Shown here in pieces: positions 17,828 through 56,655 of a DNA stretch of 64,000 nucleotides (its first letter is position 1; each line of letters starts with the position of its first letter). The DNA is from Eledone cirrhosa. Taxonomy: Eukaryota. The notes under the pieces were generated by a model, which ran no database searches, had not been told where the DNA came from, and saw only the letters and a program-made list of their open reading frames with translations. Made by a program: the position numbers and the translations under genes. The stretch is taken from contig OZ024743.1 of assembly GCA_964016885.1 (NCBI GenBank), forward strand, positions 291,214,001 to 291,278,000, given 5' to 3'.

Positions 17828-17890
17828 CGTAAAATAAGAAAATACTTTTTAAAAAAATAAAAAAAAAATTGTTTACTTACTTAAATGTTC

Positions 17891-18651: not shown

Positions 18652-18733
18652 ACTCCCTGATGACGCAATGAATTCTCGACAGTTGGATTGCGTAACCATC
18701 TTTATCCCATTGCAGAAACTAATTAGTTGGAGT
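18652..18733 (+). ncRNA. type I hammerhead F2 (distal stem II hairpin partly mutated)
   Basis: same motif; AACTGTC reads AACCATC here. Confidence 0.8.
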
Positions 18734-19205
18734 GAAAATTTAAGTAAGTAAGTAAAAAATGTTTAAAAAATCTTTTTTAAAAATATTTTCTTGTTTTACG
18801 TCTTTTATATTATTGTTCTGCATCCTCCTGCATTGAACCACCTAGGTACTATGACATAACCTGTGTATTTGCTGGCATGGACGTGCATCTGTGCGTTTAT
18901 GTTAGTTGATATATTAAATTATCTATATTTATCTCCAAATCACTGATTTGTCGAGCAAACCTGCCAAAACCACTTCTAAATTGTTTGGCGTGTTAGTACG
19001 CGTCAGTCATCTTACCATCCCATTCCTTCTAACTAGCCTCTGTGTCACGTGATTGATTCTTTAGAATCGGCCATTTGACTAGAAGCAGTGAGAATTTCAG
19101 TACATGGAATCCAGTCCTCACCAGCTGTTCTATCTACCGAATTATTATTATTTTTATATGAGCCGCCAGTGTCCGCGCATTGCCTGGAGACTTAGCTGAG
19201 AATAG

Positions 19206-19287
19206 ACTCCCTGATGACGCAATGAATTCTCGACAGTTGGATTGCGTAACTGTCTTTATCCCATTGCAGAAACTAATTAGTTGGAGT
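19206..19287 (+). ncRNA. type I hammerhead F2
   Basis: same motif, intact. Confidence 0.85.
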
Positions 19288-19472
19288 GAAAATTTAAGTA
19301 AGTAAGTAAACAATTTTTTAAAAATTTTTTAAAAAGTATTTTCTTATTTTACGTTTTTTATATTATTGTTCTGCATCCTCCTGCATTGAACCACCTAGGT
19401 ACTATGACATAACCTGTGTATTTGCTGGCATGGACGTGCATCTGTGCGCTTATGTTAGTTGATATATTAAAT

Positions 19473-19549
<77 letters not shown>

Positions 19550-19735
19550 TTATTAATACAATAACAGAGATAGCTTAACGCTAAACTCCGACTGGTAACC
19601 ATCTCACTCAACAAACATTAGGTTATATGTTAGTATAACCCAATTTAAGTGTTTGGAGTGCTAACTATATGTATCTTGTGGAAAGCCAGTTGTATTATTT
19701 TATGAGATATAATTAAAGTTAAAATATATCTCTCT

Positions 19736-25013: not shown

Positions 25014-25057
<44 letters not shown>

Positions 25058-25059
<2 letters not shown>

Positions 25060-32093: not shown

Positions 32094-32156
<63 letters not shown>

Positions 32157-32213
32157 TATTAAACAAATAATGAATAAAACAATGAAACAGTTCCTTATAT
32201 TAAACAAAAAAAG

Positions 32214-32368
32214 TTCATTATTTAACGATCGTTTCTAGGATATATATGTGTTAGAATTGGCATGCATATTCAACAGATCTATGTACAAAATTATACAAAA
32301 TTATACAAACTATCAAGATTAAATATACATACCAAACACACATATACGCCGTCTTCAGAAATAATGAA
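32214..32368 (-). ncRNA. type I hammerhead F6 in Naiad 3' pLTR, 116-nt stem II
   Basis: TTCATTATTT-CTGAAGA-[116 nt hairpin]-GAAA-CGATCG-TT-AAATAATGAA. Confidence 0.85.
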
Positions 32369-32982
32369 ATATATTTATTGATAATAACAACAATTCAAAA
32401 TTTCAGGTCCGTTTGGGAACAGTTCAAAATTGACCAATGAAAATACAAAAGGTTTTATGCAGTTTGGTGTGTGTATATACATGTATCTAACCCCGTACAC
32501 ATATTTATACAAAGATGTATGCTCAACATGCATACGCATGCCAAAAAGATGCATGCAAATACAAAATGTCAAGGCTAATGTCTCTGTAAGTTTATAATGC
32601 ACAGATAAAATGCGTATAGACACATAAATATGAAATAAGTGTATACACATATTCTCATACTCACACATATCCGTACACTCACACACACGCGCGCGTATAT
32701 GCATAAACATACACATAATTACGAACATACATACACACACACACACCCACACACATATATATGTGGATATAATATTATCATAAGCACATGGATATTAATT
32801 CACTCACATAAACACTGCCACACACATTTAGATCAAGATACAGAAATTAGGTGGGAGGGGGGAGAGGTCAGTATTCAACGGTTTGGGCAGACTGCTTATT
32901 TATAGATGTATCTATAAACTAAGAAATAAAAAATAAAAAGGAAAGAAAAGAAAAAGAAAAAAGAAAAAAGAAATATATCAAG

Positions 32983-33045
<63 letters not shown>

Positions 33046-33110
33046 CTACACATAGAACACACAAACACACACATATATAAACATATACATATACATACAT
33101 ACACACATAT

Positions 33111-33153
<43 letters not shown>

Positions 33154-33434
33154 TATCCACATATAATCACACATACATATATAGACACACATATATATAC
33201 ACATACACGCACATATACATACACATACATACTTATATACATACAGACATACACATACATACCTATATATACACACAAATACATACAGACATACATACAT
33301 ACATACACACAAATACTTACGCATCCATATATCGGTATATACATACAAACACCACTACACTCTCACACAACTCAGACATACAAAGAAAAAGGTATATACA
33401 ATACATATACACATACAAATAGAGATACATATAC

Positions 33435-33469
<35 letters not shown>

Positions 33470-33665
33470 CACATACACATATACACACATATATATACAC
33501 ACACATACATACATGTACACACATATACACATACATTCATACACGCATACACACATACATATATAGTCATACACACATATACACCTACACGAACATACAC
33601 ATACACATATATAAAGATATATATACACACACATACATACACACACACACATATATATAAAATAA

Positions 33666-33704
<39 letters not shown>

Positions 33705-33773
33705 TATATACACACACACATATACATACACATATATGTACATACATACACATACTCACATACATATACACAC

Positions 33774-33805
<32 letters not shown>

Positions 33806-34335
33806 ACACATACATACATACACACACAACATACATACACACACATATATACTCATACATAGACATAGATATATATTCATACATACATACGCACTTACAT
33901 ATACTCATATATACAAATACATACGCATCCATATATGCGTATATACATACAAACACCACTACACTCTCACTCAACTCAGACATACAAAGAAAAAGGTATA
34001 TACATATACATATATACACACATTAATAGAGATACATATACACATATATAAATATATATACACATACATTTATATATATACCCACACACACATACAACCA
34101 TAAACACACATACAAACACATACATACACACATATATACATACATATATATACACACACACAAAAAACACACATACACATATATATTTTTACACATATAT
34201 ATACACATATATATACATATACACACCCTCACATATATGCACATACACATAAGTTATATTATAATAATAAATAATATATACATATATATATATATACACA
34301 TACGAATATACACATATATACACACATAGATATAC

Positions 34336-34369
<34 letters not shown>

Positions 34370-35378
34370 TCACATATATATGTGCGCACACGTACATATA
34401 TACACATACACACATATACACATAAACATATACATGTGCATACATGTACATACACACATATACCCACATAGATACGAAGATAGACATATATATAGAGAGA
34501 CATACATATATATACACATATATACATACACATACATACACACATATATATATATACACATATATATACACACACATACATACACGCCCACACACATATA
34601 TACACATATACACATATATATATACATACATATACACATATATATACACATGCATATATACACATATATATATACACACACACATATATATACACACACA
34701 ATCATACATTCTTATTTGCATGCGCATATATGTATTTTTATACTCATATATAAACACACAAACATATATACACCTACCTACATATATATACATACATACA
34801 CGCTTACAAACACAGATGATAATAGTATGGGGGAAAGGGGGGGGGGAGAAGGGGATTATAGTAAATATATGTTTCAAGAAACATAGAATATTAATCTGTA
34901 TCTGGATCCCAATATATGTTTTTACATAGTTTCAGTGTTAGGAAATGCAAGAAATAAGGCAAAATTATGCATTTCAAAATAAGTATACCATTAATTATAT
35001 GTTAACTAAACTAAAGATAGTTAACATATTGATTTCTAAGGTGTAAATTAGTTAGGTTTATAATATTTGAAGCAGAATTTTGAAGTTAAATAGTAGTGGA
35101 GTATTAATTATAGTATAACTAAATTAAAGTTATTAACGTTATGGTATCAATATTAGGAAATGAATTTAGTAATAGGGAAAAAACAAATAAAGTATTACAT
35201 CGGTAGTAGAATATAAATTATAGGTTAACTAAATTAAAAATTATATATTAATTTCTATAGTATATGTTAATTAGGTATATAATAAATAAAACAGATATTG
35301 TATTTTATCAATAGCAGAATATAATTATATGCAATTAGAAATCAAAATTAATACATATACATATACATATACATACAC

Positions 35379-35415
<37 letters not shown>

Positions 35416-35914
35416 TACATATACATACATATACATACATACATATACATATTTTTTCAAAAATTGCAAAGAATATATTAACTAGGTATACATCCAAAAC
35501 ACATCCCATTCTATGATTACATGACACTCTGCAATCCGTCTGTATTAGGATACTAATTTTAAGCCAATTAAATTAAATTTTTAGGTTGACTAAATTTAAA
35601 ACCAAATTATAAATATATTTCTAAAATGTATATTAATTAGGTCTATAATACTAAAAATTATTTCTCTGTCATTGGATACACGATATTTTGTTATATTTTA
35701 TCTGTAAAGGAATTTTAATAAAAGGTTTAAATAAATTAAAATTAATCTATAAATTAAATTACTAAGTATATATTAGTAATATTTAAAGGTTTTTCACAAT
35801 TTATGATTACACAATATTTTATATTCTCATCTGTAGTAGAATTTTAATTAAATTAAATTTATAGATTAACTAACATTTAAATTAAATTATATATTAATTT
35901 CTAAAATAATGTTA

Positions 35915-38356
35915 TTAATTAGGTTTATAATATTTAAATGTTTTTTTTAGTTTATGATTACACGATATAATTAATTCCTGTCGTTTATTTAATAGGATAT
36001 CCTTAGATTTCATTATTTCAAATAGTTCTTGGGAACATAATCTACATTCATTTCTATTATTTTGATAAGGGGTGGCTCTTTTGAGCACACTCCAGGTCAA
36101 ATCATATTCTATATTCTTATTTTTATAACTATTGATTTTTTCTGCTAGAGATGTTGTATTAGCCAGTGCGGCATTTTCAAAACTATGCTTGTGGGTATTA
36201 AACCTTGTCTTAAAATTGTTAGAAGTAGCTCCTATATATGAGCAAATAGAATCTTTAGTTTTAACATTACATTTATAGACTATGTTGTTAACAAGACAAT
36301 TCCCTTTTAATGGGCAGTTTGCTTTGTTTCTACAGTTACAACCTTTCGTTAATTCTGTATTTGAGGAGATATTATGGTTAATTTGATGTACTGGTGGTAT
36401 ACTTATGGTTTTCTTACATTTATATGCATTATAGGCACTTATATTTTGTTTTATGTTATTTGTTGTTGAGTATGAGAATTTAACTGTAGACCTATTTAAG
36501 ATTTGATGGTATTTGTGGTTTGGCGGGAAGTTTTTCTCTAGGATATAACAAAATTTTTTAGCAATATTATCCTTAATTTGTAAATTAAATGGAGCATTAT
36601 ACCAAGTAACCCGTCTATTACGGTTTCTATGTTGTTTATTATTTTTATTATTTTTATATGTTGTATCGTGATGTTTACTAGGAGGATTAATGTTAATGAT
36701 CTCACCACAACCATTTTTAGTTATATTTGTAGATTTAGGTGTTTTATCTTTTTTATTAGGAGTTTTATTATTAATATTTATTAGAGTTGTATGATGAGTA
36801 GTTTTTTGAGAGTTACTATATTTTATATTAGAAGATTTGGTATTTTGGGGTATAGTGTGGGTGGCATTTAGGTGTGTACTTTTCATTTGGTGTTTGTTGG
36901 TAATATTAGGTTGTATGCTTTTAGTATTTTTAGTAGAAGGTATATATTCTAATCTATTTTTGTGGCCACTTCTATCTAGAGCTTCGTTATAGAAGGTCGC
37001 ATTTTTATCAAATACATCTTGGTTAGAAGAAAGGTTAGAAATTCTAAGTGATATATTATATGCAAGGTTTTTAAGGATAGATTTAGGGTGATTAGATTGT
37101 GAGTGTATGTAATGTAAGTTTTGGTTTGGTTTATGGTAAGGTTGGTAGATACCCGTAGCTAAATCTAAAGTTATATCTAGGAAATTTACTACTTTACTTG
37201 TTTTTTCAAAAGTAATATGAAGATTATAATAGTCTTTAAGGAAAGTTCTAATATGTTTTTTGTTTTTTTCAATTTCTGAAAGGCTAAGGTTGTTAGAAAG
37301 AAGAAGACAGTCATCACGATATAAACCACCTTTGAGGTGGGGAAAGGAGGCATTTATGTTGAAAAGGAGAAAGAGGCCCACAAGATCAGTAATTTGGGCG
37401 GAATCGCTTGAACCCATAGTAATATCAAATAGATTACTATATGTGTTTCTGGTCCAGTATTCATTCTGAAATTCAATAAGTGTTAGTCTAGCATGTGTAA
37501 TAATATTAATGTCATCCAAAGTTAAGTTAGATCTATTTTTAGCAAATATCAATGCTTTGTTCAGGAGTATAGGTGATATAGAAGAATAGTAATTATCTAT
37601 ATCAAATTGTAGAAATGAAGCAGAAGATTTACATCTAATATTTTTAAACCAGTTAATTACCTGGGAGGTGTTTTCCCAGAGTGGTAAAATAACGTGTTTT
37701 CTTATTTGTGGGATGACTCTATCCAAAATTTTTTTGCTAATTATTCCAATATCTGATTTGGAGGGACATATAAGTCTTATAGAAGGATTTGAGTTAAAGT
37801 TTGATTTATGATCCTACAGGTTGAAGTGTGGTCTTTTCAATGCCAAAGGTTCAGTTCTATCTTCAATGTTTAGTTTTTTTACTATGTTGTGTGTTTTGTT
37901 GTTGATGTTGGTGAGTGACGCATTATTAGATTTTTTATAATTTTTTCTGAGTTCTTTATATATGAACTCATTATAATGTTCAATATCCATATGATACAAG
38001 TTACCAGTTTTGTCCGAGTGGACATGGATTTTTTTAGACTTTTTTAGGTCCAATAGGGTAGAATCAAGGTCCTTTTGAAAGACGGATTTATACTTTTTAA
38101 ATTTGAGGTGTTTAATTAAATTAAAAAGGTCTTTCTCGAAGTCTTCAAGTAAAAAGTTGTGTGGTGGATTCTTGTAAGTATTGAAATCATACATATATTT
38201 CCGATCTGCTTGTTTAGATTTTTTATCGAAGTGGTAGGCTCTCCATCTAACCCTTCTGATAAAATTATTAGTTTTTTGAATCATAAGGAGTAAGAAGTCA
38301 TCCTTAGAAGGTATTGGTATGTTTTTTAAAGAGGTTCCCAAATATTGTTTTTCCAT
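35915..38356 (-). pseudogene. Naiad-type RT + GIY-YIG ORF (~813 codons) interrupted by one in-frame TAG at 37814-37816
   Basis: ORFs 37814-38377 and 35915-37726 are in the same frame, joined by L*DHKSNFNSNPSIRLICPSKSDIG; QFDIDNYYSSI, ITMGSSDSAQ, GLYRDD, CNCRNKANCPLKGNC, IVY-YIG, CRLC..CNH. Confidence 0.93.
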
Positions 38357-38706
38357 TGTGATATGGATGATGGACAATTGAAAGAGCTCAACTAAATGTA
38401 TATGGGTTTATAAAATCATACATATATATGTATATACATAAATATAAAATTAATACACACATGCAGTACAAAAATACGAATATTTCCGTGAAAATAGGAG
38501 CAAAATTATGTAGATAAATCTACCAAGAGTTTACGGTAGTGTCCAATCCGTATGAAGAACTCAATGTATTCCGGATATCATGGAAAGAAGAGATGTAATG
38601 AAAAATCACTTTCGGTGAAAGATAAACGGTATACAGAGTCAAGATAAAATATTAAACAAATAATGAATAAAACAATGAAACAGTTCCTTATATTAAACAA
38701 AAAAAG

Positions 38707-38861
38707 TTCATTATTTAACGATCGTTTCTAGGATATATATGTGTTAGAATTGGCATGCATATTCAACAGATCTATGTACAAAATTATACAAAATTATACA
38801 AACTATCAAGATTAAATATACATACCAAACACACATATACGCCGTCTTCAGAAATAATGAA
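38707..38861 (-). ncRNA. hammerhead F6 in 5' direct pLTR
   Basis: same sequence as 32214-32368. Confidence 0.85.
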
Positions 38862-39477
38862 ATATATTTATTGATAATAACAACAATTCAAAATTTCAGG
38901 TCCGTTTGGGAACAGTTCAAAATTGACCAATGAAAATACAAAAGGTTTTATGCAGTTTGGTGTGTGTATATACATGTAACTAACCCCGTACACATATTTA
39001 TACAAAGATGTATGCTCAACATGCATACGCATGCCAAAAAGATGCATGCAAATACAAAATTTCAAGGCTAATGTCTCTGTAAGTTTATAATGCACAGATA
39101 AAATGCGTATAGACACATAAATATGAAATAAGTGTATACACATATTCTCATACTCACACATATCCGTACACTCACACACAGGCGCGCGTATATGCATAAA
39201 CATACACATAATTACGAACATACATACACACACACACCCCCCACACACATATATATGTGGATATAATATTATCATAAGCACATGGATATTAATTCACTCA
39301 CATAAACACTGCCACACACATTTAGATCAAGATACAGAAATTAGGTGGGAGGGGGGGAGAGGTCAGTATTCAACGGTTTGGGCAGACTGCTTATTTATAG
39401 ATGTATCTATAAACTAAGAAATAAAAAATAAAAAGGAAAGAAAAGAAAAAGAAAAAAGAAAAAAGAAATATATCAAG

Positions 39478-39536
<59 letters not shown>

Positions 39537-39601
39537 CTACACATAGAACACACACACACACACATATATAAACATATACATATACATACATACACACATA
39601 T

Positions 39602-39652
<51 letters not shown>

Positions 39653-39923
39653 TATCCACATATAATCACACATACATATATAGACACACATATATATACA
39701 CATACACGCACATATACATACACATACATACTTATATACATACAGACATACACATACATACCTATATATACACACAAATACATACAGACATACATACATA
39801 CATACACACAAATACTTACGCATCCATATATCGATATATACATACAAACACCACTACACTCTCACACAACTCATGTGTATATATATGTGTGTCTATATAT
39901 GTATGTGTGATTATATGTGGATA

Positions 39924-39976
<53 letters not shown>

Positions 39977-40041
39977 ATATGTGTGTATGTATGTATATGT
40001 ATATTTTTATATATGTGTGTGTGTGTGTGTTCTATGTGTAG

Positions 40042-40120
<79 letters not shown>

Positions 40121-40736
40121 CTTGATATATTTCTTTTTTTCTTTTTTCTTTTTCTTTTCTTTCCTTTTTATTTTTTATTTCTTAGTTTATAGATACATCT
40201 ATAAATAAGCAGTCTGCCCAAACCGTTGAATACTGACCTCTCCCCCCCTCCCACCTAATTTCTGTATCTTGATCTAAATGTGTGTGGCAGTGTTTATGTG
40301 AGTGAATTAATATCCATGTGCTTATGATAATATTATATCCACATATATATGTGTGTGGGGGTGTGTGTGTGTATGTATGTTCGTAATTATGTGTATGTTT
40401 ATGCATATACGCGCGCGTGTGTGTGAGTGTACGGATATGTGTGAGTATGAGAATATGTGTATACACTTATTACATATTTATGTGTCTATACGCATTTTAT
40501 CTGTGCATTATAAACTTACAGAGACATTAGCCTTGAAATTTTGTATTTGCATGCATCTTTTTGGCATGCGTATGCATGTTGAGCATACATCTTTGTATAA
40601 ATATGTGTACGGGGTTAGTTACATGTATATACACACACCAAACTGCATAAAACCTTTTGTATTTTCATTGGTCAATTTTGAACTGTTCCCAAACGGACCT
40701 GAAATTTTGAATTGTTGTTATTATCAATAAATATAT

Positions 40737-40891
40737 TTCATTATTTCTGAAGACGGCGTATATGTGTGTTTGGTATGTATATTTAATCTTGATAGTTTGT
40801 ATAATTTTGTATAATTTTGTACATAGATCTGTTGAATATGCATGCCAATTCTAACACATATATATCCTAGAAACGATCGTTAAATAATGAA
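40737..40891 (+). ncRNA. hammerhead F6 in inverted pLTR (GUU site after 40881)
   Basis: core CTGAAGA 40747-40753, GAAAC 40870-40874, 10-bp stem I. Confidence 0.87.
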
Positions 40892-41085
40892 CTTTTTTTG
40901 TTTAATATAAGGAACTGTTTCATTGTTTTATTCATTATTTGTTTAATATTTTATCTTGACTCTGTATACCGTTTATCTTTCACCGAAAGTGATTTTTCAT
41001 TACATCTCTTCTTTCCATGATATCCGGAATACATTGAGTTCTTCATACGGATTGGACACTACCGTAAACTCTTGGTAGATTTATC

Positions 41086-41162
<77 letters not shown>

Positions 41163-41351
41163 TAAACCTACCAAAAGTTTACGGTAGCGTCCAATCCGTA
41201 TGAAGAACTCAATGCAATCCGGATATCATGAAAAGAGAAGATGCATTCAAAAACTACTTTCGGTGAAAAATAAACGGAAAACAGAGTCAAGATAAAATAT
41301 TAAAAAAATAATGAATAAACAAAGAAACACTTCCTTATATCAGAAAAATTG

Positions 41352-41489
41352 ATTATTTTACGATCGTTTCTAGGATATATATGTATTAGAGTTGGTATGC
41401 ATATTCTATAGATCTATGTACAATATTTATACAAACTATCAGAGGGAATATACATACCTTCACATATATATGCTGTCTTCAGAAATAAT
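41352..41489 (-). ncRNA. hammerhead F6 variant (GUA site)
   Basis: ATTATTT-CTGAAGA-CAGCATATATATGTG...ATATATATCCTA-GAAA-CGATCG-TA-AAATAAT. Confidence 0.82.
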
Positions 41490-42183
41490 GATACTTGTTT
41501 ATTGCTAAGAACAAAGATTCAATACAATAGGTCTGTTTGGGAACAGGTTTTGAATTGACCAATCAGGAGATAGTGAGGGTCAAGATAGTGAAATTAGGAG
41601 AATCTTAAATTATGGGTAGAGGAAGGTAGATTTCAGTTTTGGATGGAAAAGAGTATTATGAATTAAGGATTACTTTAGGGAAGAAGTAGGTCATATGTTG
41701 ACCTCAGAAATAATTTTATTTGTTCATTGAATAAAACCAACAAAGACCAAATATATTCTGTCTGTTTGGTAAGATGTTTAGAATTAACCAATAGAAGGTT
41801 AATAATTGGCCAAATGGTAAAATAGTAGTAATTGAAACTTATTTTAGGGGTGAAACTAGGTCAGGTGGTCAGTAGAAGGTATACAAGCAGTTGCTGTTAT
41901 AAAATAGTAATGCCAATACAAATATCTAAGGTGACTAGAGTTTTAAGATAAGGATGTTGGTGAAAAAAAATACATCTATGAAAAGGATATAAAATTAATT
42001 TAGTTGATGGGTATATTTATATTGATAACATTATACTAATGCATACAGATATGATAAATAAGAGTTAGATGCAGTTGAAAAGTGCTGTTAAGGATGAGGG
42101 GAGATTAAAAGAAAATAAGAATGATATATATATATATATACATATATGTACCTACATATATATACATACATACACACACACAT

Positions 42184-42529: not shown

Positions 42530-43032
42530 TTACTTAATGGTATCAGTTTTAGGAAATGATATTTGTAAGAAGGAGAACCAAATTATGTAGTTCATCATTA
42601 GTAGAATATTAATTATAGGTTAACTAAAATAAAAATAGTTTATATCTAAATTTCTAAGGTGTATATTAATTAGGTTTATCATATTTAAAGCAGAATTATG
42701 TAGTTCATCAGTAGTAGAATATTAATTATAGGTTAACTAAATTAAAAATAATTATATATGTTTACTTAATGGTATCAGTTTTAGGAAATGATATTTGTAG
42801 AAGGAAAGCCAAATTATGTAGTTCATCAGTAGTAGAATATTAATTATATGTTAACTAAATTAAAAATAGTTCATATATTAATTTCTAAAGTGTATATTAA
42901 TTAGGTTTATAATATTTAAAGCAGAATTTTGTAATTCATCTGTAGTAGAATATTAATTATAGGTTAACTAAATTAAAATTAATTTATATATTAATTTCTA
43001 AAGTGTATATTAATTAGGTTTATAATATTTAA
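42530..43032. repeat. ~120-bp imperfect tandem repeat covering the Naiad stop codon and proximal 3' UTR
   Basis: gtagtagaatattaattataggttaactaaattaaaa recurs 4 times; degenerate counterpart at ~34960-35915. Confidence 0.8.
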
Positions 43033-44160
43033 ATGTTTTTCTCAGTTTATGATTACACGATATTATTAATTCCTGTCACTTATTTAATAGGATATCCTTA
43101 GATTTCATTATTTCGAAAAGTTCTTGGGAACACAATCTACATTCATTTCTACTATTTTGATAAGGGATGGCCCTTTTGAGCACACTCCAGGTCAGGTCAT
43201 ATTCTATATTCCTCTTTCTATAACTATTAATTTTTTCAGCTAGAAATGTTGTATTAGCTAGTGCGGCATTTTTAAAACTATGTTTGTGGGTATTAAATCT
43301 TACCTTAAAATTGTTAGTGGTAGCTCCTATATATGAATAAATAGAGTCCTTAGTGTTAACTTTACATTTATATATTATGTTATTAACAAGGCAATTTCCT
43401 TTTAATCGACAGTTTGCCTTGTTTCTACAGTTATAACTTTTCGTGAGTCCTGTATCTGAGGAGATATTATGGTTAGTTTGATGTACTGCTGGTATACTTA
43501 TGTTTTTTTTAACATTTATATGCATTATAGGCACTTATATTTTGTTTTATGTTTTTGGTTGTTGAGTAGGAGAATTTAACTGTTGATCTATTTAAGATTT
43601 GATGGTATTTGTGGTTTGGCGGGAATTTTTTCTCTAGGATATTAAAGAATTATTTAGGTATATTATCCTTAACTTGTAAATTAAATGGAGCATTATACCA
43701 AGTAACCCGTCTATTACGGTTTCTATGTTTTTATTGTTTTTATAGGATGCATCCTGATGTTTACTAGGAGAATTATTGTTAATGACCTCTCCACACACAT
43801 TTTTAGTTAGATTTATTGATTTAGGTGTTTTAGCTTGTTTATTAGGAGTTTTATTATTAACATTTATTAGAGTTGTAGGATGAGTAGTTTTTTGAGAGTT
43901 ACTATACTGTATATTAGAAGAGTTAGAGAAAATTGGTTTTATGTTGGTATTTTGGGGTATAGTGTGAGTGGCATTTAGGTGTGTACGTTTCATTTGGTGT
44001 TTGTTGGTAATATTAGGTTGTATGTTTGTAGTATTATTGGTAGAAGATATATATATTAATCTATTTTTGTGGCCACTTCTAGCTAGAGCTTCGTTATAAA
44101 AGGTCGCATTTTTATCAAATACATCTTGTCGCATTTTTATCAAATACATCTTGGTTAGAC

Positions 44161-44220
44161 GAAGCTATAACGAAGCTATAACGAAGCTATAACGAAGCTA
44201 TAACGAAGCTATAACGAAGC
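44161..44220. repeat. (GAAGCTATAAC)x5 at the inversion junction
   Basis: direct reading. Confidence 0.95.
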
Positions 44221-45468
44221 TCTAGCTAGAAGTGGCCACAACAATAGATTAATATATATACCTTCTACCAATAATACTACAAACATACAACCTAATATTA
44301 CCAACAAACACCAAATGAAACGTACACACCTAAATGCCACTCACACTATACCCCAAAATACCAACATAAAACCAATTTTCTCTAACTCTTCTAATATACA
44401 GTATAGTAACTCTCAAAAAACTACTCATCCTACAACTCTAATAAATGTTAATAATAAAACTCCTAATAAACAAGCTAAAACACCTAAATCAATAAATCTA
44501 ACTAAATATGTGTGTGGAGAGGTCATTAACAATAATTCTCCTAGTAAACATCAGGATGCATCCTATAAAAACAATAAACAACATAGAAACCGTAATAGAC
44601 GGGTTACTTGGTATAATGCTCCATTTAATTTACAAGTTAAGGATAATATACCTAAATAATTCTTTAATATCCTAGAGAAAAACTTCCCGCCAAACCACAA
44701 ATACCATCAAATCATAAATAGATCAACAGTTAAATTCTCCTACTCAACAACCAAAAACATAAAACAAAATATAAGTGCCTATAATGCATATAGATGTTAA
44801 AAAAACCATAAGTATACCAGCAGTACATCAAACTAACCATAATATCTCCTCAGATACAGGACTCACGAAAAGTTATAAATGTAGAAACAAGGCAAACTGT
44901 CGATTAAAAGGAAATTGCCTTGTTAATAACATAATATATAAATGTAAAGTTAACACTAAGGACTCTATTTATTCATATATAGGAGCTACCACTAACAGTT
45001 TTAAGGTAAGATTTAATACCCACAAACATAGTTTTAAAAATGCCGCACTAGCTAATACAACATCTCTAGCTGAAAAAATTAATAGTTATAGAAAGAGGAA
45101 TATAGAATATGACCTGACCTGGAGTGTGCTCAAAAGGGCCACCCCTTATCAAAATAGTAGAAATGAATGTAGATTGTGTTCCCAAGAACGTTTCGAAATA
45201 AGGAAATCTAAGGATATCCTATTAAATAACCGACAGTAATTAATAATATCGTGTAATCATAAACTGAGATAAACATTTAAATATTATAAACCTAATTAAT
45301 ATATTTACTATTTCCCACTAATAAATTTAATCCCCCCCCCCAATAATGATATGTATATGTAAGTGTGTATGTATGTATGTGTGTATGTATGTGAGTGTAA
45401 AAATATATATATATGTATGTATATATATATATATATATGTGTGTATATGTGTGTGTATGTGTGTATGA

Positions 45469-46470: not shown

Positions 46471-46852
46471 GGCAGTATCGGTAGAGGGTCGGACGCCATG
46501 CTTTGACGCATAGAGTTACGGCCCTTGCCATTCTGAGTTCAAATCCCGCCGAGGTTAACTTTGCCTTTCATCCTTACGGGGTCGATAAAATAAAGTACCA
46601 GTAATACACTGGGAAATTGCTGGCCTTGTGCCAAAAGTAGAAACAATTATTTCTGAAGACAGCGGTGAATTGGCAGTATCGGTAGAGGGTCGGACGCCAT
46701 GCTTTGACGCATAGAGTTACGGCCCTTGCCATTCTGAGTTCAAATCCCGCCGAGGTTAACTTTGCCTTTCATCCTTACGGGGTCGATAAAATAAATTACC
46801 AGTAATACACTGGGAAATTGCTGGCCTTGTGCCAAAAGTAGAAACAATTATT
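46471..46852 (+). mobile_element. tandem pair of near-identical tRNA-derived SINEs inserted in HHR stem I
   Basis: ggcagtatcggtagag...gagttcaaatcccgccgagg...gtagaaacaattatt twice, separated by a duplicated TCTGAAGACAGC. Confidence 0.9.
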
Positions 46853-46984
46853 TCTGAAGACAGCATATATATGTGAAGGTATGTATATTCCCTCTGATAG
46901 TTTGTATAAATATTGTACATAGATCTATAGAATATGCATACCAACTCTAACACATATATATCCTAGAAACGATCGTAAAATAAT
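46847..46984 (+). ncRNA. hammerhead F6 variant (GUA site after 46977)
   Basis: ATTATTT-CTGAAGA(46854-60)...GAAAC(46966-70)GATCGTA-AAATAAT. Confidence 0.82.
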
Positions 46985-47030
46985 GAATTTTTCTAATATA
47001 AGGAACTGTTTCTTTGTTTATTCATTATTT

Positions 47031-47092
<62 letters not shown>

Positions 47093-47098
<6 letters not shown>

Positions 47099-47581
47099 GA
47101 AAACACAGGTAAGCATCAAGAGAAGGATTTTATCCAGGTATTTACGAATGTCTCATTGGCAAGTGCAACCTGATATTGCTATACTGCAAATAGCAGCCAC
47201 TCAATTATAATTATTGTTCACGTCCAAATTTTCAAAATAGTGAGTAAGTTACTCTTGAAATAGTTCTTAATTTATATAGAAAAACATTTTTTGGGAATTG
47301 TATTTACTAGTATAGAGAGAGAGTAAGAGGAATTAAGGGGACAACCGGAATATCAAGGGGACAACCGGAATAGTATAGAGAGAGAGGAAGGGGCAGAAGA
47401 GTTAGAAGTTTAGAAATAGAGTGACAAACTGAGATGGAAGGAGGGGTAGAGGTGGAAGGATTCCTTGATCAGTTTTGATATGTAGACTCCATGTCGTGGA
47501 ATGTAGTGAGTTAAAGAGAATTAAATTTATCATAGTGGGAGGGATGGAGAGAGAGAGAGAGAGAAAGAGAGAGTGACAGAC

Positions 47582-47617
<36 letters not shown>

Positions 47618-50290
47618 GGGGGAGATATAAAAAGATAAATATATATATAAAAATAAAGATAAAGATAATAATGACAAAAATAAAAGCAAAGAAGGGGGAG
47701 AAAGAAGGACATAAAAGATAGCCAAAAAAGGGGAGGGAAGGAAGGAAGAAAACGAATAGAAGAGGAATGAAGGATAAGTGAGGGATAAAGGTATTGGTTT
47801 TTGTGGGTAATTAAAAGGATTTAGATACAATAAGATGGTATAAAGTCTAAGTATAAGCAGTTTGTCAGTTGGTAGTAAGAGGTTAAGGGTTCGATTTGAA
47901 CTTGTAGTGCGAAAACTTTTCTTTGAGTCTATGGTTTCAATAAATTGATCTTTCGATGTTATTGTTGAGTAACTTATTCTTCGAACTCAAATTGTGGAAC
48001 AGCTCAAGGTTACATAATCGACAGCTTATCATACCTTTCTGATACGGGGGCGCGTTCGATAATTTTTTTCCACTTCAGGGTGTATTGATGGTTACTTTCA
48101 CTCAGTTGCCAGGTCTTGTTTGCAAGGGTAGTTACATAACGATTCTGGGAATGTTTCATTGCGTAACGGTGTGTATACCAACGGGCTTTAAATGTATTCC
48201 CAGTCGATCAGATGTAATACCATTTCTGGTTTTCTGATTCCAGTGTGCATTGGTAAACCAGGTTAGACTGCATACATTCATTATGTAATGGACAGGTTTC
48301 ATGTAGGTCGCAGTTACAATTCTTGTCATGGGCAACTTTGGCATTATTGGTGGGCTGCGATGCCTGTACAAGTGCGTGTGTTACGTTTTGTTTGCCTTTT
48401 AGTGGGTGGTTGTGTATTAGATATGATGTTGTGTTCAATGGCGATTGTATTGTTATTGTTGTAAATTTGTGTTCTGTTGTTGTTATGTATCTTTTTAGCA
48501 TTAAGCATCTTAATGTGTGCCTCTATATGTGTTGCCGTGGAGTAAGATAGTCAAATATATTTAGTGTTATGGATTTTGCTGTATCTATGTGAATCTGGAA
48601 AGTGCTTATTTATTATTCTAAAGAAGGTAGAGGGTACGTTAATACTAATAGAGTTTTTAAATATGGGGTTATACCAAATATATTTTCTAATGCGTGACTT
48701 GTTTGATTTCGATGTTGTATTTCTATTTACCGTATACTTTGTAGTTCTATGTGTAAGTGCGTGTGTGCGCTTTGCGGAGGCTTTCATCTATATATTCTAC
48801 TCTATCTAAGTGGCCTGCCTTGTCTAATGCGGTATTGTAGTATTCTGCAGGTTCCTCGAAAATTTGTCGGTTAGGCGAGAGGCAGCAGATCCTAAGGGAT
48901 ATGCTGCGTGGAACGGATTTAATTATGGATAGTGGGTGGTTTCAGTTACAGTTGATGTATGTTAAGTTTTCATTAATCTTGTGAAAAGGTCTTATATTTA
49001 GGTTAAGCGTCGCGTCTAGAAAGTTCACTGTTTTAGTGCTATACGCATACGTTATGCTAAGGCCTAGTTTCCTGAGAGTCTTTCTAATATTCTTACAGAG
49101 TCGTTCTATGCTCTGGTTATTTAGGTTCTTAACTAGGAGAAGGGCGTCGCTAAACTCACTCTGTAAACTATGGGCTATGTAAATACCTACTAAATCTGTG
49201 ACTTGAGCCGATTCATTAGCCCCCATCGTGATGTCAAGTTATTTAATCTATCCTTACGTTCCCAATAGGCGTTTTCAAATTTAATTATTGTTTACCTAGC
49301 AGCTAACATGATTTTTATCTCGTCGTCTGTTAGGTCAGAATTGAATTTGGCGAATGCTAAGGCTTTATCCGAGGTGTTGGGTGATATAGAGGAGTTATAG
49401 TCGTTAATGTCAAATTGTATAAATTTAAAGCGGTCAAAACCTCAAATGTGTATGCGATTGATGTTAATACATACAATAGCTTCCTACGGAAATAATTACA
49501 TAGGAAATACGAAAAAACTAATGAGGCGGCACTGATAAACATCACCAATGAGGCACACAATATAGTCAAACACCTAGGAATAGACGACAGAACTTAGGCC
49601 ATGTACCCCCACATTTAATTTCAAGGACCATAAGGTAAATTTTGATTATAACCCCACAATTAGGCTTATATTCCCGTCCAAATCGGACATTGGGAAAATT
49701 AGTAAACATATATTAGACAGAATGATAGCACAAATGAAGAATAAAATAGTGATTAAACTATGGGATAACGCTACCGAAACAATTAAGTGGTTTAACAATA
49801 TAGCTAACAAAAAAGTATCTAAATTCATACAATTTGACATTAACGACTATTACTCCTCCATATCCCCCCAACACCTTGGATAAAGCCTTAGCATTCGCCA
49901 AAGCCAATTCTGACCAAACAGACGACGAGATGAAAATCATATTAACTGCTAGGAAAACAATAATTAAATTTGAAAACGCCTATTGGTAACGTAAGGATAG
50001 ATTAAATAACTTTGACATCACGATGGGGGCTAACGACTCGGCTCAAGTCACAGATTTAGTAGGTATTTACATAAACCATAGTTTACAGAGTGAGTTTAGC
50101 GACCTTCACGGTGGAATCTACAGAGACGTCGCCCTTCTCCTAATTAAGAACCTAAATAACCGGAGCATAGATAGACTCCGGAAGAATATTAGAATAACTC
50201 TCGGGAAACTAGGCCTCAGCATAACGTATGCGTATAGCATTAACACAGTTAACTTTCTAGACGCGACGCTTAACCTAAATACGGGACTTG
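47093..50290. mobile_element. Naiad-type family A copy 2 (- strand 47093-~49428) with inverted RT segment (+ strand ~49429-50290)
   Basis: 3' UTR homologous to 25058-25774; ORFs 48208-48501, 48551-48787, 48942-49226 (YRDD region deleted) and 50023-50307 (YRDV). Confidence 0.9.
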
Positions 50291-50635: not shown

Positions 50636-50976
50636 ATACAAGTTAATATAAACTAATATATTTGATAAACACAAATACCAACATATTCATGTTTGTATTG
50701 TAAATGACCAAGTTAGCTAGATTGAAATATACTAATAATAATAATACATTTTGCCTGTCTCAATTTAAGATAATAAATCAATAAAAACAAATCATATTGG
50801 CAACAGCCATTGCCAATATGATTTGTTTTTATTGATTTATTATCTTAAATTGAGACAGGCAAAATGTATTATTATTATTAGTATATTTCAATCTAGCTAA
50901 CTTGGTCATTTACAATACAAACATGAATATGTTGGTATTTGTGTTTATCAAATATATTACTTTATATTAACTTGTA
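50636..50976. repeat. near-perfect ~340-bp palindrome
   Basis: atacaagttaatataaa...aatcatattggcaa-cagcca-ttgccaatatgatt...tttatattaacttgtat. Confidence 0.95.
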
Positions 50977-50977
50977 T

Positions 50978-51019
<42 letters not shown>

Positions 51020-51023
<4 letters not shown>

Positions 51024-54000
51024 TAATTTAATATATCAACTAACATAGGCGCACAGATGCACGTCCATGCCAGCAAATACACAGGTTATGTCATAGTACC
51101 TAGGTGGTTCAATGCAGGAGGGTGCAGAACAATAATATAAAAGACGTAAAATAAGAAAATATTTTTTAAAAAAATTTTTTAAAAAATTTTTTACTTACTT
51201 ACTTAAATTTTCACTCCAACTAATTAGTTTCTGCAATGGGATAAAGACAGTTACATAATCCAACTGTCGAGAATTCATTGCGTCATCAGGGAGTCTATTC
51301 TCAGCTGAGCCTCCAGGCAATGCGCGGACACTAGCGGCTCATATAAAAATAATAATTCGGTAGAAAGAACAGCTAGGCGAGGACTGGATTCTATGTACTG
51401 AAATTCTCACTGCTTCCAGTCAAATGCCCGATTCTAAAGAATCAATCACGTGACATAGAGGCTAGTTAGAAGGAATGGGATGGTAAGATGATTGACGCCT
51501 ACTAACACCCCAAAAAAAATTTTGAAGTGGTTTTGGCAGGTTTGCTCGACAAATCAGTGATTTGGAGATAAATATAGATAATTTAATATATCAACTAACA
51601 TAGGCGCACAGATGTACGTCCATGCCAGCAAATACACAGGTTATGTCATAGTACCTAGGTGGTTCAATGCAGGAGGGTGCAGAACAATAATATAAAAGAC
51701 GTAAAATAAGAAAATATTTTTTAAAAAAATTTTTTTAAAAATTTTTTACTCACTTACTTAAATTTTCACTCCAACTAATTAGTTTCTGCAATGGGATAAA
51801 GACAGTTACATAATCCAACTGTCGAGAATTCATTGCGTCATCAGGGAGTCTATTCTCAGCTGAGCCTCCAGGCAATGCGCGGACACTAGCGGCTCATATA
51901 AAAATAATAATTCGGTAGAAAGAACAGCTAGGCGAGGACTGGATTCTATGTACTGAAATTCTCACTGCTTCCAGTCAAATGCCCGATTCTAAAGAATCAA
52001 TCACGTGACATAGAGGCTAGTTAGAAGGAATGGGATGGTAAGATGATTGACGCCTACTAACACCCCAAAAAAAATTTTGAAGTGGTTTTGGCAGGTTTGC
52101 TCGACAAATCAGTGATTTGGAGATAAATATAGATAATTTAATATATCAACTAACATAGGCGCACAGATGCACGTCCATGCCAGCAAATACACAGGTTATG
52201 TCATAGTACCTAGGTGGTTCAATGCAGGAGGGTGCAGAACAATAATATAAAAGACGTAAAATAAGAAAATATTTTTTTAAAAAATTTTTTTAAAAATTTT
52301 TTACTTACTTAAATTTTCACTCCAACTAATTAGTTTCTGCAATGGGATAAAGACAGTTACATAATCCAACTGTCGAGAATTCATTGCGTCATCAGGGAGT
52401 CTATTCTTTAGATTCTTTAGAATCGGACATTTGACTGGAAGCAGTGAGAATTTCAGTACATAGAATCCAGTCCTCGCCTAGCTGTTCTTTCTACCGAATT
52501 ATTATTTTTATATGAGCCGCTAGTGTCCGCGCATTGCCTGGAGGCTCAGCTGAGAATAGACTCCCTGATGACGCAATGAATTCTCGACAGTTGGATTATG
52601 TAACTGTCTTTATCCCATTGCAGAAACTAATTAGTTGGAGTGAAAATTTAAGTAAGTAAGTAAAAAACTTTTTAAAAAATTGTTTTTAAAAATATTTTCT
52701 TATTTTACGTCTTTTATATTATTGTTCTGCACCCTGCTGCATTGAACCACCTAGGTACTATGACATAACCTGTGTATTTGCTGGCATGGACGTGCATCTG
52801 TGCGCCTATGTTAGTTGATATATTAAATTATCTATATTTATCTCCAAATCACTGATTTGTCGAGCAAACCTGCCAAAACCACTTCAAAATTTTTTTTGGG
52901 GTGTTAGTAGGCGTCAGTCATCTTACCATCCCATTCCTTCTAACTAGCCTCTATGTCACGTGATTGATTCTTTAGAATCGGACATTTGACTGGAAGCAGT
53001 GAGAATTTCAGTACATAGAATCCAGTCCTCGCCTAGCTGTTCTTTCTACCGAATTATTATTTTTATATGAGCCGCTAGTGTCCGAGCATTTCTTGGAGGC
53101 TCAGCTGAGAATAGACTCCCTGATGACGCAATGAATTCTCGACAGTTGGATTATGTAACTGTCTTTATCCCATTGCAGAAACTAATTAGTTGGAGTGAAA
53201 ATTTAAGTAAGTAAGTAAAAAATTTTTTAAAAAATTTTTTAAAAAATTTTTTAAAAAAATATTTTCTTATTTTACGTCTTTTATATTATTGTTCTGCACC
53301 CTCCTGCATTGAACCACCTAGGTACTATGACATAACCTGTGTATTTGCTGGCATGGACGTGCATCTGTGCGCCTATGTTAGTTGATATATTAAATTATCT
53401 ATATTTATCTCCAAATCACTGATTTGTCGAGCAAACCTGCCAAAACCACTTCAAAATTTTTTTTGGGGTGTTAGTAGGCGTCAGTCATCTTACCATCCCA
53501 TTCCTTCTAACTAGCCTCTATGTCACGTGATTGATTCTTTAGAATCGGACATTTGACTGGAAGCAGTGAGAATTTCAGTACATAGAATCCAGTCCTCGCC
53601 TAGCTGTTCTTTCTACCGAATTATTATTTTTATATGAGCCGCTAGTGTCCGCGCATTGCCTGGAGGCTCAGCTGAGAATAGACTCCCTGATGACGCAATG
53701 AATTCTCGACAGTTGGATTATGTAACTGTCTTTATCCCATTGCAGAAACTAATTAGTTGGAGTGAAAATTTAAGTAAGTAAGTAAAAAACTTTTTTAAAA
53801 ATTTTTTAAAAAAATATTTTCTTATTTTACGTCTTTTATATTATTGTTCTGCACCCTCCTGCATTGAACCACCTAGGTACTATGACATAACCTGTGTATT
53901 TGCTGGCATGGACGTGCATCTGTGCGCCTATGTTAGTTGATATATTAAATTATCTATATTTATCTCCAAATCACTGATTTGTCGAGCAAACCTGCCAAAA

Positions 54001-56618
54001 CCACTTCAAAATTTTTTTTTGGGTGTTAGTAGGCGTCAGTCATCTTACCATCCCATTCCTTCTAACTAGCCTCTATGTCACGTGATTGATTCTTTAGAAT
54101 CGGACATTTGACTGGAAGCAGTGAGAATTTCAGTACATAGAATCCAGTCCTCGCCTAGCTGTTCTTTCTACCGAATTATTATTTTTATATGAGCCGCTAG
54201 TGTCCGCGCATTGCCTGGAGGCTCAGCTGAGAATAGACTCCCTGATGACGCAATGAATTCTCGACAGTTGGATTATGTAACTGTCTTTATCCCATTGCAG
54301 AAACTAATTAGTTGGAGTGAAAATTTAAGTAAGTAAGTAAAAAATCTTTTAAAAAATTTTTTTAAAAAATATTTTCTTATTTTACGTCTTTTATATTATT
54401 GTTCTGCACCCTCCTGCATTGAACCACCTAGGTACTATGACATAACCTGTGTATTTGCTGGCATGGACGTGCATCTGTGCGCCTATGTTAGTTGATATAT
54501 TAAATTATCTATATTTATCTCCAAATCACTGATTTGTCGAGCAAACCTGCCAAAACCACTTCAAAATTTTTTTTGGGGTGTTAGTAGGCGTCAGTCATCT
54601 TACCATCCCATTCCTTCTAACTAGCCTCTATGTCACGTGATTGATTCTTTAGAATCGGACATTTGACTGGAAGCAGTGAGAATTTCAGTACATAGAATCC
54701 AGTCCTCGCCTAGCTGTTCTTTCTACCGAATTATTATTTTTATATGAGCCGCTAGTGTCCGCGCATTGCCTGGAGGCTCAGCTGAGAATAGACTCCCTGA
54801 TGACGCAATGAATTCTCGACAGTTGGATTATGTAACTGTCTTTATCCCATTGCAGAAACTAATTAGTTGGAGTGAAAATTTAAGTAAGTAAGTAAACAAT
54901 TTTTTAAAAAAGTTTTTTAAAAAATATTTTCTTATTTTACGTCTTTTATATTATTGTTCTGCACCCTCCTGCATTGAACCACCTAGGTACTATGACATAA
55001 CCTGTGTATTTGCTGGCATGGACGTGCATCTGTGCGCCTATGTTAGTTGATATATTAAATTATCTATATTTATCTCCAAATCACTGATTTGTCGAGCAAA
55101 CCTGCCAAAACCACTTCAAAATTTTTTTGGGGGTGTTAGTAGGCGTCAGTCATCTTACCATCCCATTCCTTCTAACTAGCCTCTATGTCACGTGATTGAT
55201 TCTTTAGAATCGGACATTTGACTGGAAGCAGTGAGAATTTCAGTACATAGAATCCAGTCCTCGCCTAGCTGTTCTTTCTACCGAATTATTATTTTTATAT
55301 GAGCCGCTAGTGTCCGCGCATTTCCTGGAGGCTCAGCTGAGAATAGACTCCCTGATGACGCAATGAATTCTCGACAGTTGGATTATGTAACTGTCTTTAT
55401 CCCATTGCAGAAACTAATTAGTTGGAGTGAAAATTTAAGTAAGTAAGTAAAAAATTTTTTTAAAAATTTTTTAAAAAATTTTTTAAAAAAATATTTTCTT
55501 ATTTTACGTCTTTTATATTATTGTTCTGCACCCTCCTGCATTGAACCACCTAGGTACTATGACATAACCTGTGTATTTGCTGGCATGGACGTGCATCTGT
55601 GCGCCTATGTTAGTTGATATATTAAATTATCTATATTTATCTCCAAATCACTGATTTGTCGAGCAAACCTGCCAAAACCACTTCAAAATTTTTTTTGGGG
55701 TGTTAGTAGGCGTCAGTCATCTTACCATCCCATTCCTTCTAACTAGCCTCTATGTCACGTGATTGATTCTTTAGAATCGGACATTTGACTGGAAGCAGTG
55801 AGAATTTCAGTACATAGAATCCAGTCCTCGCCTAGCTGTTCTTTCTACCGAATTATTATTTTTATATGAGCCGCTAGTGTCCGCGCATTGCCTGGAGGCT
55901 CAGCTGAGAATAGACTCCCTGATGACGCAATGAATTCTCGACAGTTGGATTATGTAACTGTCTTTATCCCATTGCAGAAACTAATTAGTTGGAGTGAAAA
56001 TTTAAGTAAGTAAGTAAAAATTTTTTTTTAAAATTTTTTTAAAAAATATTTTCTTATTTTACGTCTTTTATATTATTGTTCTGCACCCTCCTGCATTGAA
56101 CCACCTAGGTACTATGACATAACCTGTGTATTTGCTGGCATGGACGTGCATCTGTGCGCCTATGTTAATTGATATATTAAATTATCTATATTTATCTCCA
56201 AATCACTGATTTGTCGAGCAAACCTGCCAAAACCACTTCAAAATTTTTTTTGGGGTGTTAGTAGGCGTCAGTCATCTTACCATCCCATTCCTTCTAACTA
56301 GCCTCTATGTCACGTGATTGATTCTTTAGAATCGGACATTTGACTGGAAGCAGTGAGAATTTCAGTACATAGAATCCAGTCCTCGCCTAGCTGTTCTTTC
56401 TACCGAATTATTATTTTTATATGAGCCGCTAGTGTCCGCGCATTGCCTGGAGGCTCAGCTGAGAATAGACTCCCTGATGACGCAATGAATTCTCGACAGT
56501 TGGATTATGTAACTGTCTTTATCCCATTGCAGAAACTAATTAGTTGGAGTGAAAATTTAAGTAAGTAAGTAAAAAATTTTTTAAAAAATTTTTTTAAAAA
56601 ATATTTTCTTATTTTACG

Positions 56619-56626
<8 letters not shown>
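51020..56626. mobile_element. F2 ~555-bp HHR tandem array (retrozyme-like): ~2.5 units on - then ~7.6 units on +; 11 hammerheads
   Basis: unit starts 51020/51575/52130; inversion ~52408; HHRs on - at 51213-51294, 51768-51849, 52319-52400; CTGATGA on + at 52565, 53120, 53687, 54242, 54797, 55352, 55919, 56474. Confidence 0.95.
52560..52641 (+). ncRNA. type I hammerhead F2, representative array copy (GUU site after 52636)
   Basis: ACTCC-CTGATGA-C-GCAATG-AATTCTC-GACAGTT(GGATTATGT)AACTGTC-TTTATCC-CATTGC-A-GAAA-CTAATTAG-TT-GGAGT. Confidence 0.87.

Positions 56627-56655
<29 letters not shown>

Follow-up and report, generated by a model that had tools for sequence, protein, structure and literature searches.

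A hammerhead with a conserved long stem II in a Hydra-clade Penelope-like retrotransposon of Eledone cirrhosa

Among the Penelope-like retrotransposons (PLEs), the Hydra clade is diagnosed by a reverse transcriptase (RT) followed by a GIY-YIG endonuclease at the C terminus and by the motifs RW[K/R], DKT, CxCx5C, CxxC and CxH, while the Naiads carry the endonuclease before the RT and are described as having no canonical hammerheads (Craig et al., 2021, PMC8557442). The same paper calls the role of PLE hammerheads and the meaning of intron retention unclear and expects introns of the 5' untranslated region (UTR) in other PLEs. In Penelope an internal start and a 5'-UTR intron 46 nt after it have been described (PMC2377424).

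Here we describe, in a 64,000-nt stretch of the genome of Eledone cirrhosa (contig OZ024743.1, positions 291,214,001 to 291,278,000 of the forward strand; hereafter the window, to which all coordinates refer), a Hydra-clade PLE whose hammerheads have a stem II of approximately 100 nt. This structural variant of the PLE hammerhead is real and strongly supported; a transcription start at its stem I is moderately supported, and a leader intron and a switch between splicing and copying are predictions. PLE hammerheads and the Hydra clade were already known, and what is new is a pile-up of the 5' ends of genomic copies approximately 7 nt before the hammerhead core. In the literature outside subscription journals and bioRxiv supplements, as far as the available parts of the papers go, neither a PLE stem II of this length nor a start site at stem I is reported.

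The hammerhead motif, its abundance and its covariation

The window holds five whole hammerhead copies, three identical ones of subfamily A and two of subfamily B. The copy at 40737..40891 on the plus strand lies in an inverted, 5'-truncated arm of the element and is repeated without change at 38707-38861 and 32214-32368 on the minus strand. It has the features of a type I hammerhead, namely a CUGANGA...GAAA core, an A15.1-U16.1 pair, an NUH triplet and three stems that are open at stem I. The 5' arm of stem I (40737..40746) forms 10 bp with the 3' arm (40882..40891), with which it covaries. The core half CUGAAGA follows at 40747..40753, with C3 at 40747 and G8 at 40752, and stem II (40754..40869) is an unbranched rod of 116 nt and approximately 44 bp with a C-C mismatch at its fourth position and a conserved internal loop near its tip, the 116 nt including a 10-nt tandem duplication (40800-40819) in the apical rod. 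GAAA, a palindromic stem III and the GUU triplet complete the motif at 40870..40881, where 40872-40881 form a perfect 10-nt palindrome and the cut is predicted after 40881. The subfamily B hammerheads, at 41346..41492 on the minus strand and at 46847..46987 on the plus strand (preceded by two copies of a short interspersed element, SINE; predicted cut after 46977), have a 105-nt stem II and GUA. An original prediction, made from the letters of the window, had named the 10-bp stem I, palindromic stem III, 116-nt stem II and GUU site, and a second subfamily with GUA, each of which was found where it had been placed. Its reading of the motif as a Penelope-like pseudo-long-terminal-repeat (pseudo-LTR) hammerhead with an unusually long stem II is borne out, other Hydra hammerheads having 10-26 nt there. 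It had also held that paired positions become Watson-Crick in the second subfamily, which is mostly so, although one G-U pair remains in the inner helix, and that the structure lies on the strand of the open reading frame (ORF); this applies to the identical copies at 38707-38861 and 32214-32368 but not to the one at 40737, which is on the plus strand while the local ORF is on the minus strand.

The 155-nt RNA is predicted to fold at -47.8 kcal/mol (z -6.7), with none of 200 shuffles as good, and the palindromic stem III is predicted to form an 8-bp intermolecular duplex of -10 kcal/mol. Strand asymmetry is strong in subfamily A (-42 sense against -21 antisense) but not general, with 35 G-U against 26 A-C over 15 subfamilies, several of which fold equally well antisense. 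Rfam hammerhead families gave no match at gathering threshold within the window, as expected of a 116-nt insertion, which lowers detection rather than likeness.

Across the genome a pattern of core, gap and stem III has 10,774 matches and a control pattern none, and further patterns for more diverged groups have 510, 1,689 and 55. More than 10,000 hammerhead motifs in one animal genome thus escape Rfam and short-stem descriptors. Fifteen subfamily majorities were built from 175 distinct copies, 14 unassigned copies being left out. In all 15 stem II has 93-116 nt (93-107 nt in the sister subfamilies of A) and folds as one unbranched hairpin, with z from -1.6 to -8.1. Pieces of Hydra ORF in the expected orientation lie near copies of subfamilies B, C, E and F, at 60-92% identity. 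In D a few copies have such a piece nearby (30-53%), and most loci have none within 10 kb. At six other loci of this genome there are hammerheads with an equal palindromic stem III and a stem II of 20-21 nt, and others with one of 40-65 nt, which suggests a graded series of stem II lengths. A comparison set of 77 metagenome Hydra loci, which are distant relatives (34-43%), yielded 46 distinct motifs in 50 of the loci, with a stem II of 10-25 nt. Five long candidates (105-242 nt) in these loci were set aside as chance, two being antisense, two overlapping a short motif and none having the C...G stem III of the short motifs.

Stems I and II and the C3-G8 pair covary. The original prediction had argued for selection on RNA pairing from the two subfamilies of the window; this contrast between A and B, of one-sided G-U against A-U, has a P of 0.58 and is too weak on its own, and selection on pairing holds only once more diverged subfamilies are included. 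In a register-anchored and alignment-free test, pairs were counted outward from the core (nine pairs in 12 majorities, leaving out D2a, D2b and D3, which are D majorities with a bulge, and two mismatch positions) and set against a purpose-built null in which the substitutions of each branch are redistributed over the columns. Paired cells numbered 106 of 108 and extra Watson-Crick types 11, against 56% and 3.7 types in the null, none of whose 5000 draws was as extreme; the six lineages alone gave the same outcome. Ten natural copies are 98% paired, and nine of their 25 pairs (five of seven at the rod base) have changed on both sides, which none of 500 shuffles matched. Three of the nine pairs examined in stem I have likewise changed on both sides. 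All 15 majorities retain a C-C or C-U mismatch at position four of stem II. A loop at the usual distance is absent, and this conserved C-C is at most a candidate for a contact between loop II and stem I. Editing by ADAR as a source of the G-U pairs was rejected, A>G changes numbering 20 and T>C changes 22 at paired rod positions.

The tertiary pair between positions 3 and 8 is C-G in five lineages and U-A in subfamily F, where U3 and A8 occur together in 99 of 100 copies among the matches listed, the other being U-G and none having C3. This swap is the strongest sign of selection; the 3-8 pair forms in the active fold. The U3-A8 variant is also reported from Schistosoma PLEs (PMC4209133), and the ribozyme of an anole PLE is rescued when positions 3 and 8 are changed together (PMC11167929). 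We consider it very probable that the hammerhead fold is selected for catalysis, cleavage itself being predicted from sequence.

The carrier element and its locus

The hammerheads belong to a Hydra-clade PLE, so assigned from ORF motifs and homologues rather than from an RT tree. Its ORF (35915..38356, minus strand) has 813 codons encoding an RT and then a GIY-YIG endonuclease, with one stop at codon 181 in the window copy; an uninterrupted natural copy is present at locus L064. Along the 813 codons lie RWR at 37, DKT at 115, YRDD at 346, CxCx5C at 673, the GIY-YIG-like segment at 692-709, CxxC at 771 and CxH at 799, and CxxC and CxH flank the conserved E and N as in Hydra elements. The single ORF with its C-terminal GIY-YIG has 95 homologues of equal layout, among which the motif seen here as RWR is RWK or RWR. 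TATA or ATAT follows the 3' end within 12 nt in 88 of 100 listed copies, in keeping with insertion into (TA)n. The unit departs from a descriptive rather than diagnostic trait of the clade, a length below 3 kb, in being approximately 6.5 kb with a 3' region of 3.6-3.7 kb. The label Naiad, given in the original prediction, is rejected because the RT precedes the endonuclease (YRDD at 346, GIY-YIG-like at 692-709) and Hydra motifs are present; DKT stands at 115 where a Naiad would have DKA, and the ORF contains no match to GxKF/Y or to a Cx2-5CxxC finger. A Pfam search gave no match. A non-LTR retrozyme was also rejected, the units being coding and 6.5 kb long and the short copies being truncated ends of the Hydra element.

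The locus has the usual Penelope layout, in which an inverted 5'-truncated copy (39873..41091, plus strand) adjoins the upstream pseudo-LTR of a full-length unit (38507..39703, minus strand); the latter contains the hammerhead at 38707-38861 and the inferred start at 38858. Beyond the ORF a microsatellite-rich 3' region of approximately 3.7 kb (32151..35914, minus strand) terminates with the hammerhead at 32214-32368 and a short 3' end. The inverted copy is followed by a (TA)n target at 41092..41158, which a subfamily B copy abuts, tail to tail. Elsewhere in the genome there are head-to-tail arrays of four to five units of approximately 6.5 kb. The last ORF codons (35915-35940) recur once in the 3' region, approximately 870 nt downstream (about 0.9 kb), in every full copy examined, including those at six further loci.

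Fragments of a further, older Hydra family, with 41-57% protein identity to the main family, lie at 25015-27575 and 47048-50289, and a hammerhead of the searched form was not seen at the 3' end of this family. The 3' half of a subfamily B-type ORF has given rise to a near-perfect (95%) inverted repeat of 2.3 kb at 43006-45303. A tandem array at 50939-56628 and 17647-19561, with units of approximately 555 bp and inversions, is unrelated to the Hydra element.

Copy ends, the inferred start and the predicted leader intron

For subfamilies A and B the ends of genomic copies were mapped in the first 100 hits listed for a probe that lies downstream of the cut site, and 100 copies of F were mapped likewise. 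Among the A/B copies 36 of the 5' ends lie 0-8 nt before C3 (four being SINE junctions), with 17 at -7 and none at -9 to -12, and 47 copies extend further upstream; the corresponding count in F is 22 of 100, at 1-9 nt before position 3. The pile-up over neighbouring sequence is approximately 30-fold in A/B and 10-fold in F and has a sharp edge at -7, and a smaller group of ends clusters at stem III and at the base of the rod. Position -7 is A 40740, 7 nt before C3 in the 5' arm of stem I, and is the A of a TCA+1T that we take to be initiator-like. A downstream promoter element at +28 to +32 fits subfamily C only, as judged by eye. A G immediately precedes 14 of 28 -7 ends against 5 of 40 control ends (P 0.001), and in solo copies alone 6 of 13 against 2 of 24 (P 0.013), a count from which loci L031-L060 were left out, their query having held SINE bases. 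In LINE-1 and SVA an untemplated G has been taken as a reverse-transcribed cap (PMC4859970). Because the 5' ends pile up sharply at -7, often with an extra G, we infer that capped transcription probably starts at A 40740 (38858 on the minus-strand unit).

An AAUAAA hexamer at 40726..40731 on the plus strand precedes C3 by 15 nt and the inferred start by 9-14 nt, and is likely to be the poly(A) signal of the upstream unit. Its distance to C3 is 15 nt in A, B, C and E, 13 in F and 17-19 in D. The 5'-end pile-up does not shift with this spacing, lying on average 5.4 nt before C3 in A/B and 5.5 nt in F (counted by hand) although the spacings differ by 2. In the metagenome Hydra loci 18 of 46 motifs have a poly(A)-like hexamer in the 40 nt that follow the cut site and six have one upstream, against five of 106 background windows, which amounts to a general link between Hydra hammerheads and 3'-end signals.

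Downstream of the hammerhead the tail (40892..41091, plus strand) has two discrete element 3' ends, a short one at 40954 and a long one at 41091. Of 100 listed copies, 54 have the short end, 42 the long one and four an end between, and all 21 inverted pairs carry one of each. The two ends are likely to reflect two internal RT start sites, matching those of the anole element.

Several observations concern what adjoins these ends. A SINE, presumably of the tRNA type, is joined exactly at -7 of subfamily B hammerheads, in the window (46471-46645 and 46672-46846) and at other loci. Its 5' junctions are of at least nine kinds, and it forms arrays of as many as four. Such joints make up 31 of 100 listed A/T junctions, all of them subfamily B, which implies several hundred genome-wide; candidate origins are insertion at a specific site, a template jump from the 5' end of an RNA and a few master copies. 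Head-to-head arm junctions often contain short repeats of nearby sequence and in this resemble templated insertions at joined breaks. At locus L209 (~3150) the 5' arm of stem I and the sequence upstream of it are the reverse complement of the copy's own downstream sequence, as in a fold-back through stem I.

A candidate 5' splice site, GUAUGU at 40773..40778 (plus strand), lies on the 5' strand of the rod, 34 nt from the inferred start, and is predicted to be fully paired. Of the 15 majorities, 11 have GTRNGT at +32 to +34, where it is predicted to be paired within the rod, with a bulge in F; the three preceding bases and the fourth base vary. The candidate 3' splice site, at 38387..38396 on the minus strand, would end an intron of 434 nt at 38392, approximately 35 nt before the ATG, and an AG in fixed context at this distance is present in seven of seven readable leaders of A, B and F. 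From the inferred start to the ATG the leader has 502 nt and ten AUGs, and its 5' part is predicted to fold at -53 kcal/mol. Splicing is predicted to leave 68 nt with one 4-codon upstream frame, removing nine of the ten upstream AUGs, the cut site and both RT starts. The case for this 434-nt leader intron, running from a donor in the rod to just before the ATG, appears to us evenly balanced. Contigs of six runs of unknown kind contain the sequence with no intron-like joint and are uninformative on expression.

Interpretation, rival explanations and known systems

We would give an even chance to an explanation in which this is a Hydra-clade hammerhead with a conserved stem II rod of approximately 100 nt, likely to lie at the capped 5' end and to cleave slowly, with the help of a dimer or protein and in unspliced RNA only. 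The pseudo-LTR would start a capped RNA at stem I (A 40740). Spliced RNA would be the mRNA and be translated; in unspliced RNA the rod would fold, bury the donor, complete the ribozyme and mark the RNA as template rather than message. The rod tip is predicted as a likely protein-binding site. The element's protein would bind unspliced RNA, nick (TA)n and copy from the two tail sites, and reverse transcription on capped RNA would run off at -7 to give many short, often head-to-head insertions, while on read-through or circular RNA it would proceed into the upstream unit. Cleavage would probably be slow and dimer- or protein-assisted, like that of other PLE motifs, and cut linear RNA would rarely serve as template. 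That the rod controls splicing is a possibility we offer tentatively; that the long stem II is a full switch between splicing and copying, by which only intron-retaining RNA is reverse transcribed and only spliced RNA translated, is somewhat more doubtful. If true, the switch would give, for this Hydra family, a mechanism for PLE intron retention and a role for the hammerhead, and thousands of genomic copies would record the capped start. The family is young and abundant, and offers an uninterrupted ORF copy and a natural mutational series. The predictions place a single start, a single splice junction, a single cut site and two RT starts within 500 nt. Should nothing but the long arm stand, it is a structural variant of moderate interest.

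A number of points weigh against this explanation. Some touch the ribozyme itself. A repeat of the stem I 5' arm sequence downstream (40919..40940, plus strand), which is conserved and so nearly invariant in the six lineages that it shows no covariation, can pair with the 3' arm of stem I in a rival fold that breaks the ribozyme and is predicted to be 7-9 kcal/mol lower than the ribozyme fold. Stem II begins with a 10.1-11.1 pair that is C-A in five subfamilies (A, B, C, E and F) and A-U in D, instead of the usual G10.1-C11.1; a non-canonical U-U at this position is tolerated (PMC3088659) and is common in published Hydra motifs (File S2 of PMC8557442). The cut site is the 5' end of one in 100 copies, and cleavage there was accordingly rejected as the source of the template end, while the anole element inserted in vitro without need for cleavage (PMC11167929). 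Others touch the start. The genome-wide G excess is modest, at 649 G junctions against approximately 1,400-1,650 non-SINE, non-native A/T junctions (28-32%, compared with approximately 20% expected), partly through A/T-rich flanks that mimic -7 ends; some of the G's can derive from the inverted partner arm, and the control ends include mis-called intact copies. Many 5' ends are paired as the two arms of one insertion and are not independent, so that there are fewer events than ends. As to the intron, four D majorities have an equally long rod and no donor at +29 to +42, so that hiding the donor cannot be the sole role of the rod. The spliced junction has no match in the examined loci, nor in contigs of four runs of unknown kind; from DNA it is expected to be absent, because the intron model itself predicts none there.

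Other explanations account for part of the same evidence. One that we regard as unlikely, if worth keeping in view, follows the circle model for PLE hammerheads (PMC4209133): the ribozyme would only cut tandem read-through RNA into units that are ligated to circles, the rod would be a protein-binding or stabilising arm, the -7 ends would come from RT stalling as it leaves the fold, and there would be no intron. The head-to-tail arrays of 6.5-kb units and the palindromic stem III agree with it, as do the smaller end cluster at stem III and the rod base, the occasional fold-back products through stem I and the fact that the pile-up tracks the ribozyme in all lineages. Stalling, however, leaves the sharp -7 edge with its extra G unexplained and would be expected to block at the 3' side of the structure rather than after it had been copied in full, and it does not explain why the donor-like and acceptor-like motifs are retained amid changing sequence. 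For the fate of read-through RNA circles are compatible with the capped-start explanation. It is improbable that cleavage at a poly(A) site just past AAUAAA yields the -7 ends as its 3' products, with the rod blocking 5'-3' decay or bringing AAUAAA near a poly(A) site past stem I. The near-fixed spacing of AAUAAA in all six lineages, the U-rich sequence after stem I and the SINE-side junctions 3-29 nt past the hexamer would fit such cleavage, and in human T-cell leukaemia virus type 1 (HTLV-1) a structure draws AAUAAA and a far-off poly(A) site together. Yet the edge does not move with the spacing of the hexamer, an uncapped end would give no extra G, a long hammerhead would be no better than a compact one at bridging the distance, and the edge is only 8 nt past the hexamer, compared with 15-23 nt (PMC12789967).

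Two further explanations seem to us very improbable. Self-cleavage of the leader could remove the cap and hairpin and so enable cap-independent translation of the ORF, a role described for 5'-UTR type I hammerheads in fungal viruses (PMC13725137) and in keeping with the position of the motif approximately 500 nt before the ATG in tandem copies; six upstream AUGs would nevertheless remain after the cut, the length of stem II would have no role, and no precedent was seen in an animal retroelement. Hardly more credible is a rod that is a by-product, with AT-rich inverted repeats kept symmetrical by template switching at the level of DNA or cDNA and an inactive ribozyme. The TA-rich arms, the non-canonical base of stem II and the subfamilies that fold equally well antisense would be accounted for, but template switching cannot produce the U3-A8 swap in the core, nor can it maintain the C-C mismatch, internal loops and G-U pairs across lineages whose nearby proteins are 40-99% identical.

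Among described systems the Hydra clade (PMC8557442) agrees with the element described here in domain order, motifs, (TA)n targets and a sense-strand type I hammerhead near the 3' end, and in partial tandems that have one arm inverted and the tail on one side. Published members are generally below 3 kb with a tail of 30-40 nt, against approximately 6.5 kb and 137 nt here, and the Hydra rows of File S2 have, by eye, at most approximately 26 nt between the core halves where the present motifs have 93-116 nt; two spike-moss PLE-X rows have approximately 50 nt, also by eye. Naiad (PMC8557442) shares the Penelope-like character, (TA)n targets and tandem and inverted structure, but none of its N-terminal endonuclease, CxC linker, DKA or described lack of a canonical hammerhead fits the present element. 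The minimal PLE hammerheads of Cervera and de la Pena (2014, PMC4209133) are likewise type I, form covariation-rich families, include the U3-A8 variant and have a short palindromic helix III that points to dimers. Their helix II, however, has at most 7-8 bp and keeps G10.1-C11.1, where the rod described here has approximately 25-44 bp, begins with C-A or A-U and carries a fixed C-C as its fourth position.

Poseidon PAc of the green anole (Frangieh et al., 2024, PMC11167929) resembles the present element in that two internal RT starts define the tail, the hammerhead lies just upstream of them and targets are AT-rich. The PAc hammerhead is small and overlaps the start codon, whereas the present one lies 500 nt before the ATG and in a predicted intron, and copies here end at a sharp point before the hammerhead, unlike those of PAc. 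Penelope of Drosophila virilis (Schostak et al., 2008, PMC2377424) has an internal pseudo-LTR promoter, as is predicted here, together with a short first exon and a 5'-UTR intron that is retained in genomic copies and to which the predicted intron may be likened. The 75-nt Penelope intron extends as far as the 5' end of helix I, whereas the intron predicted here would start inside stem II and include the cut site and both RT starts.
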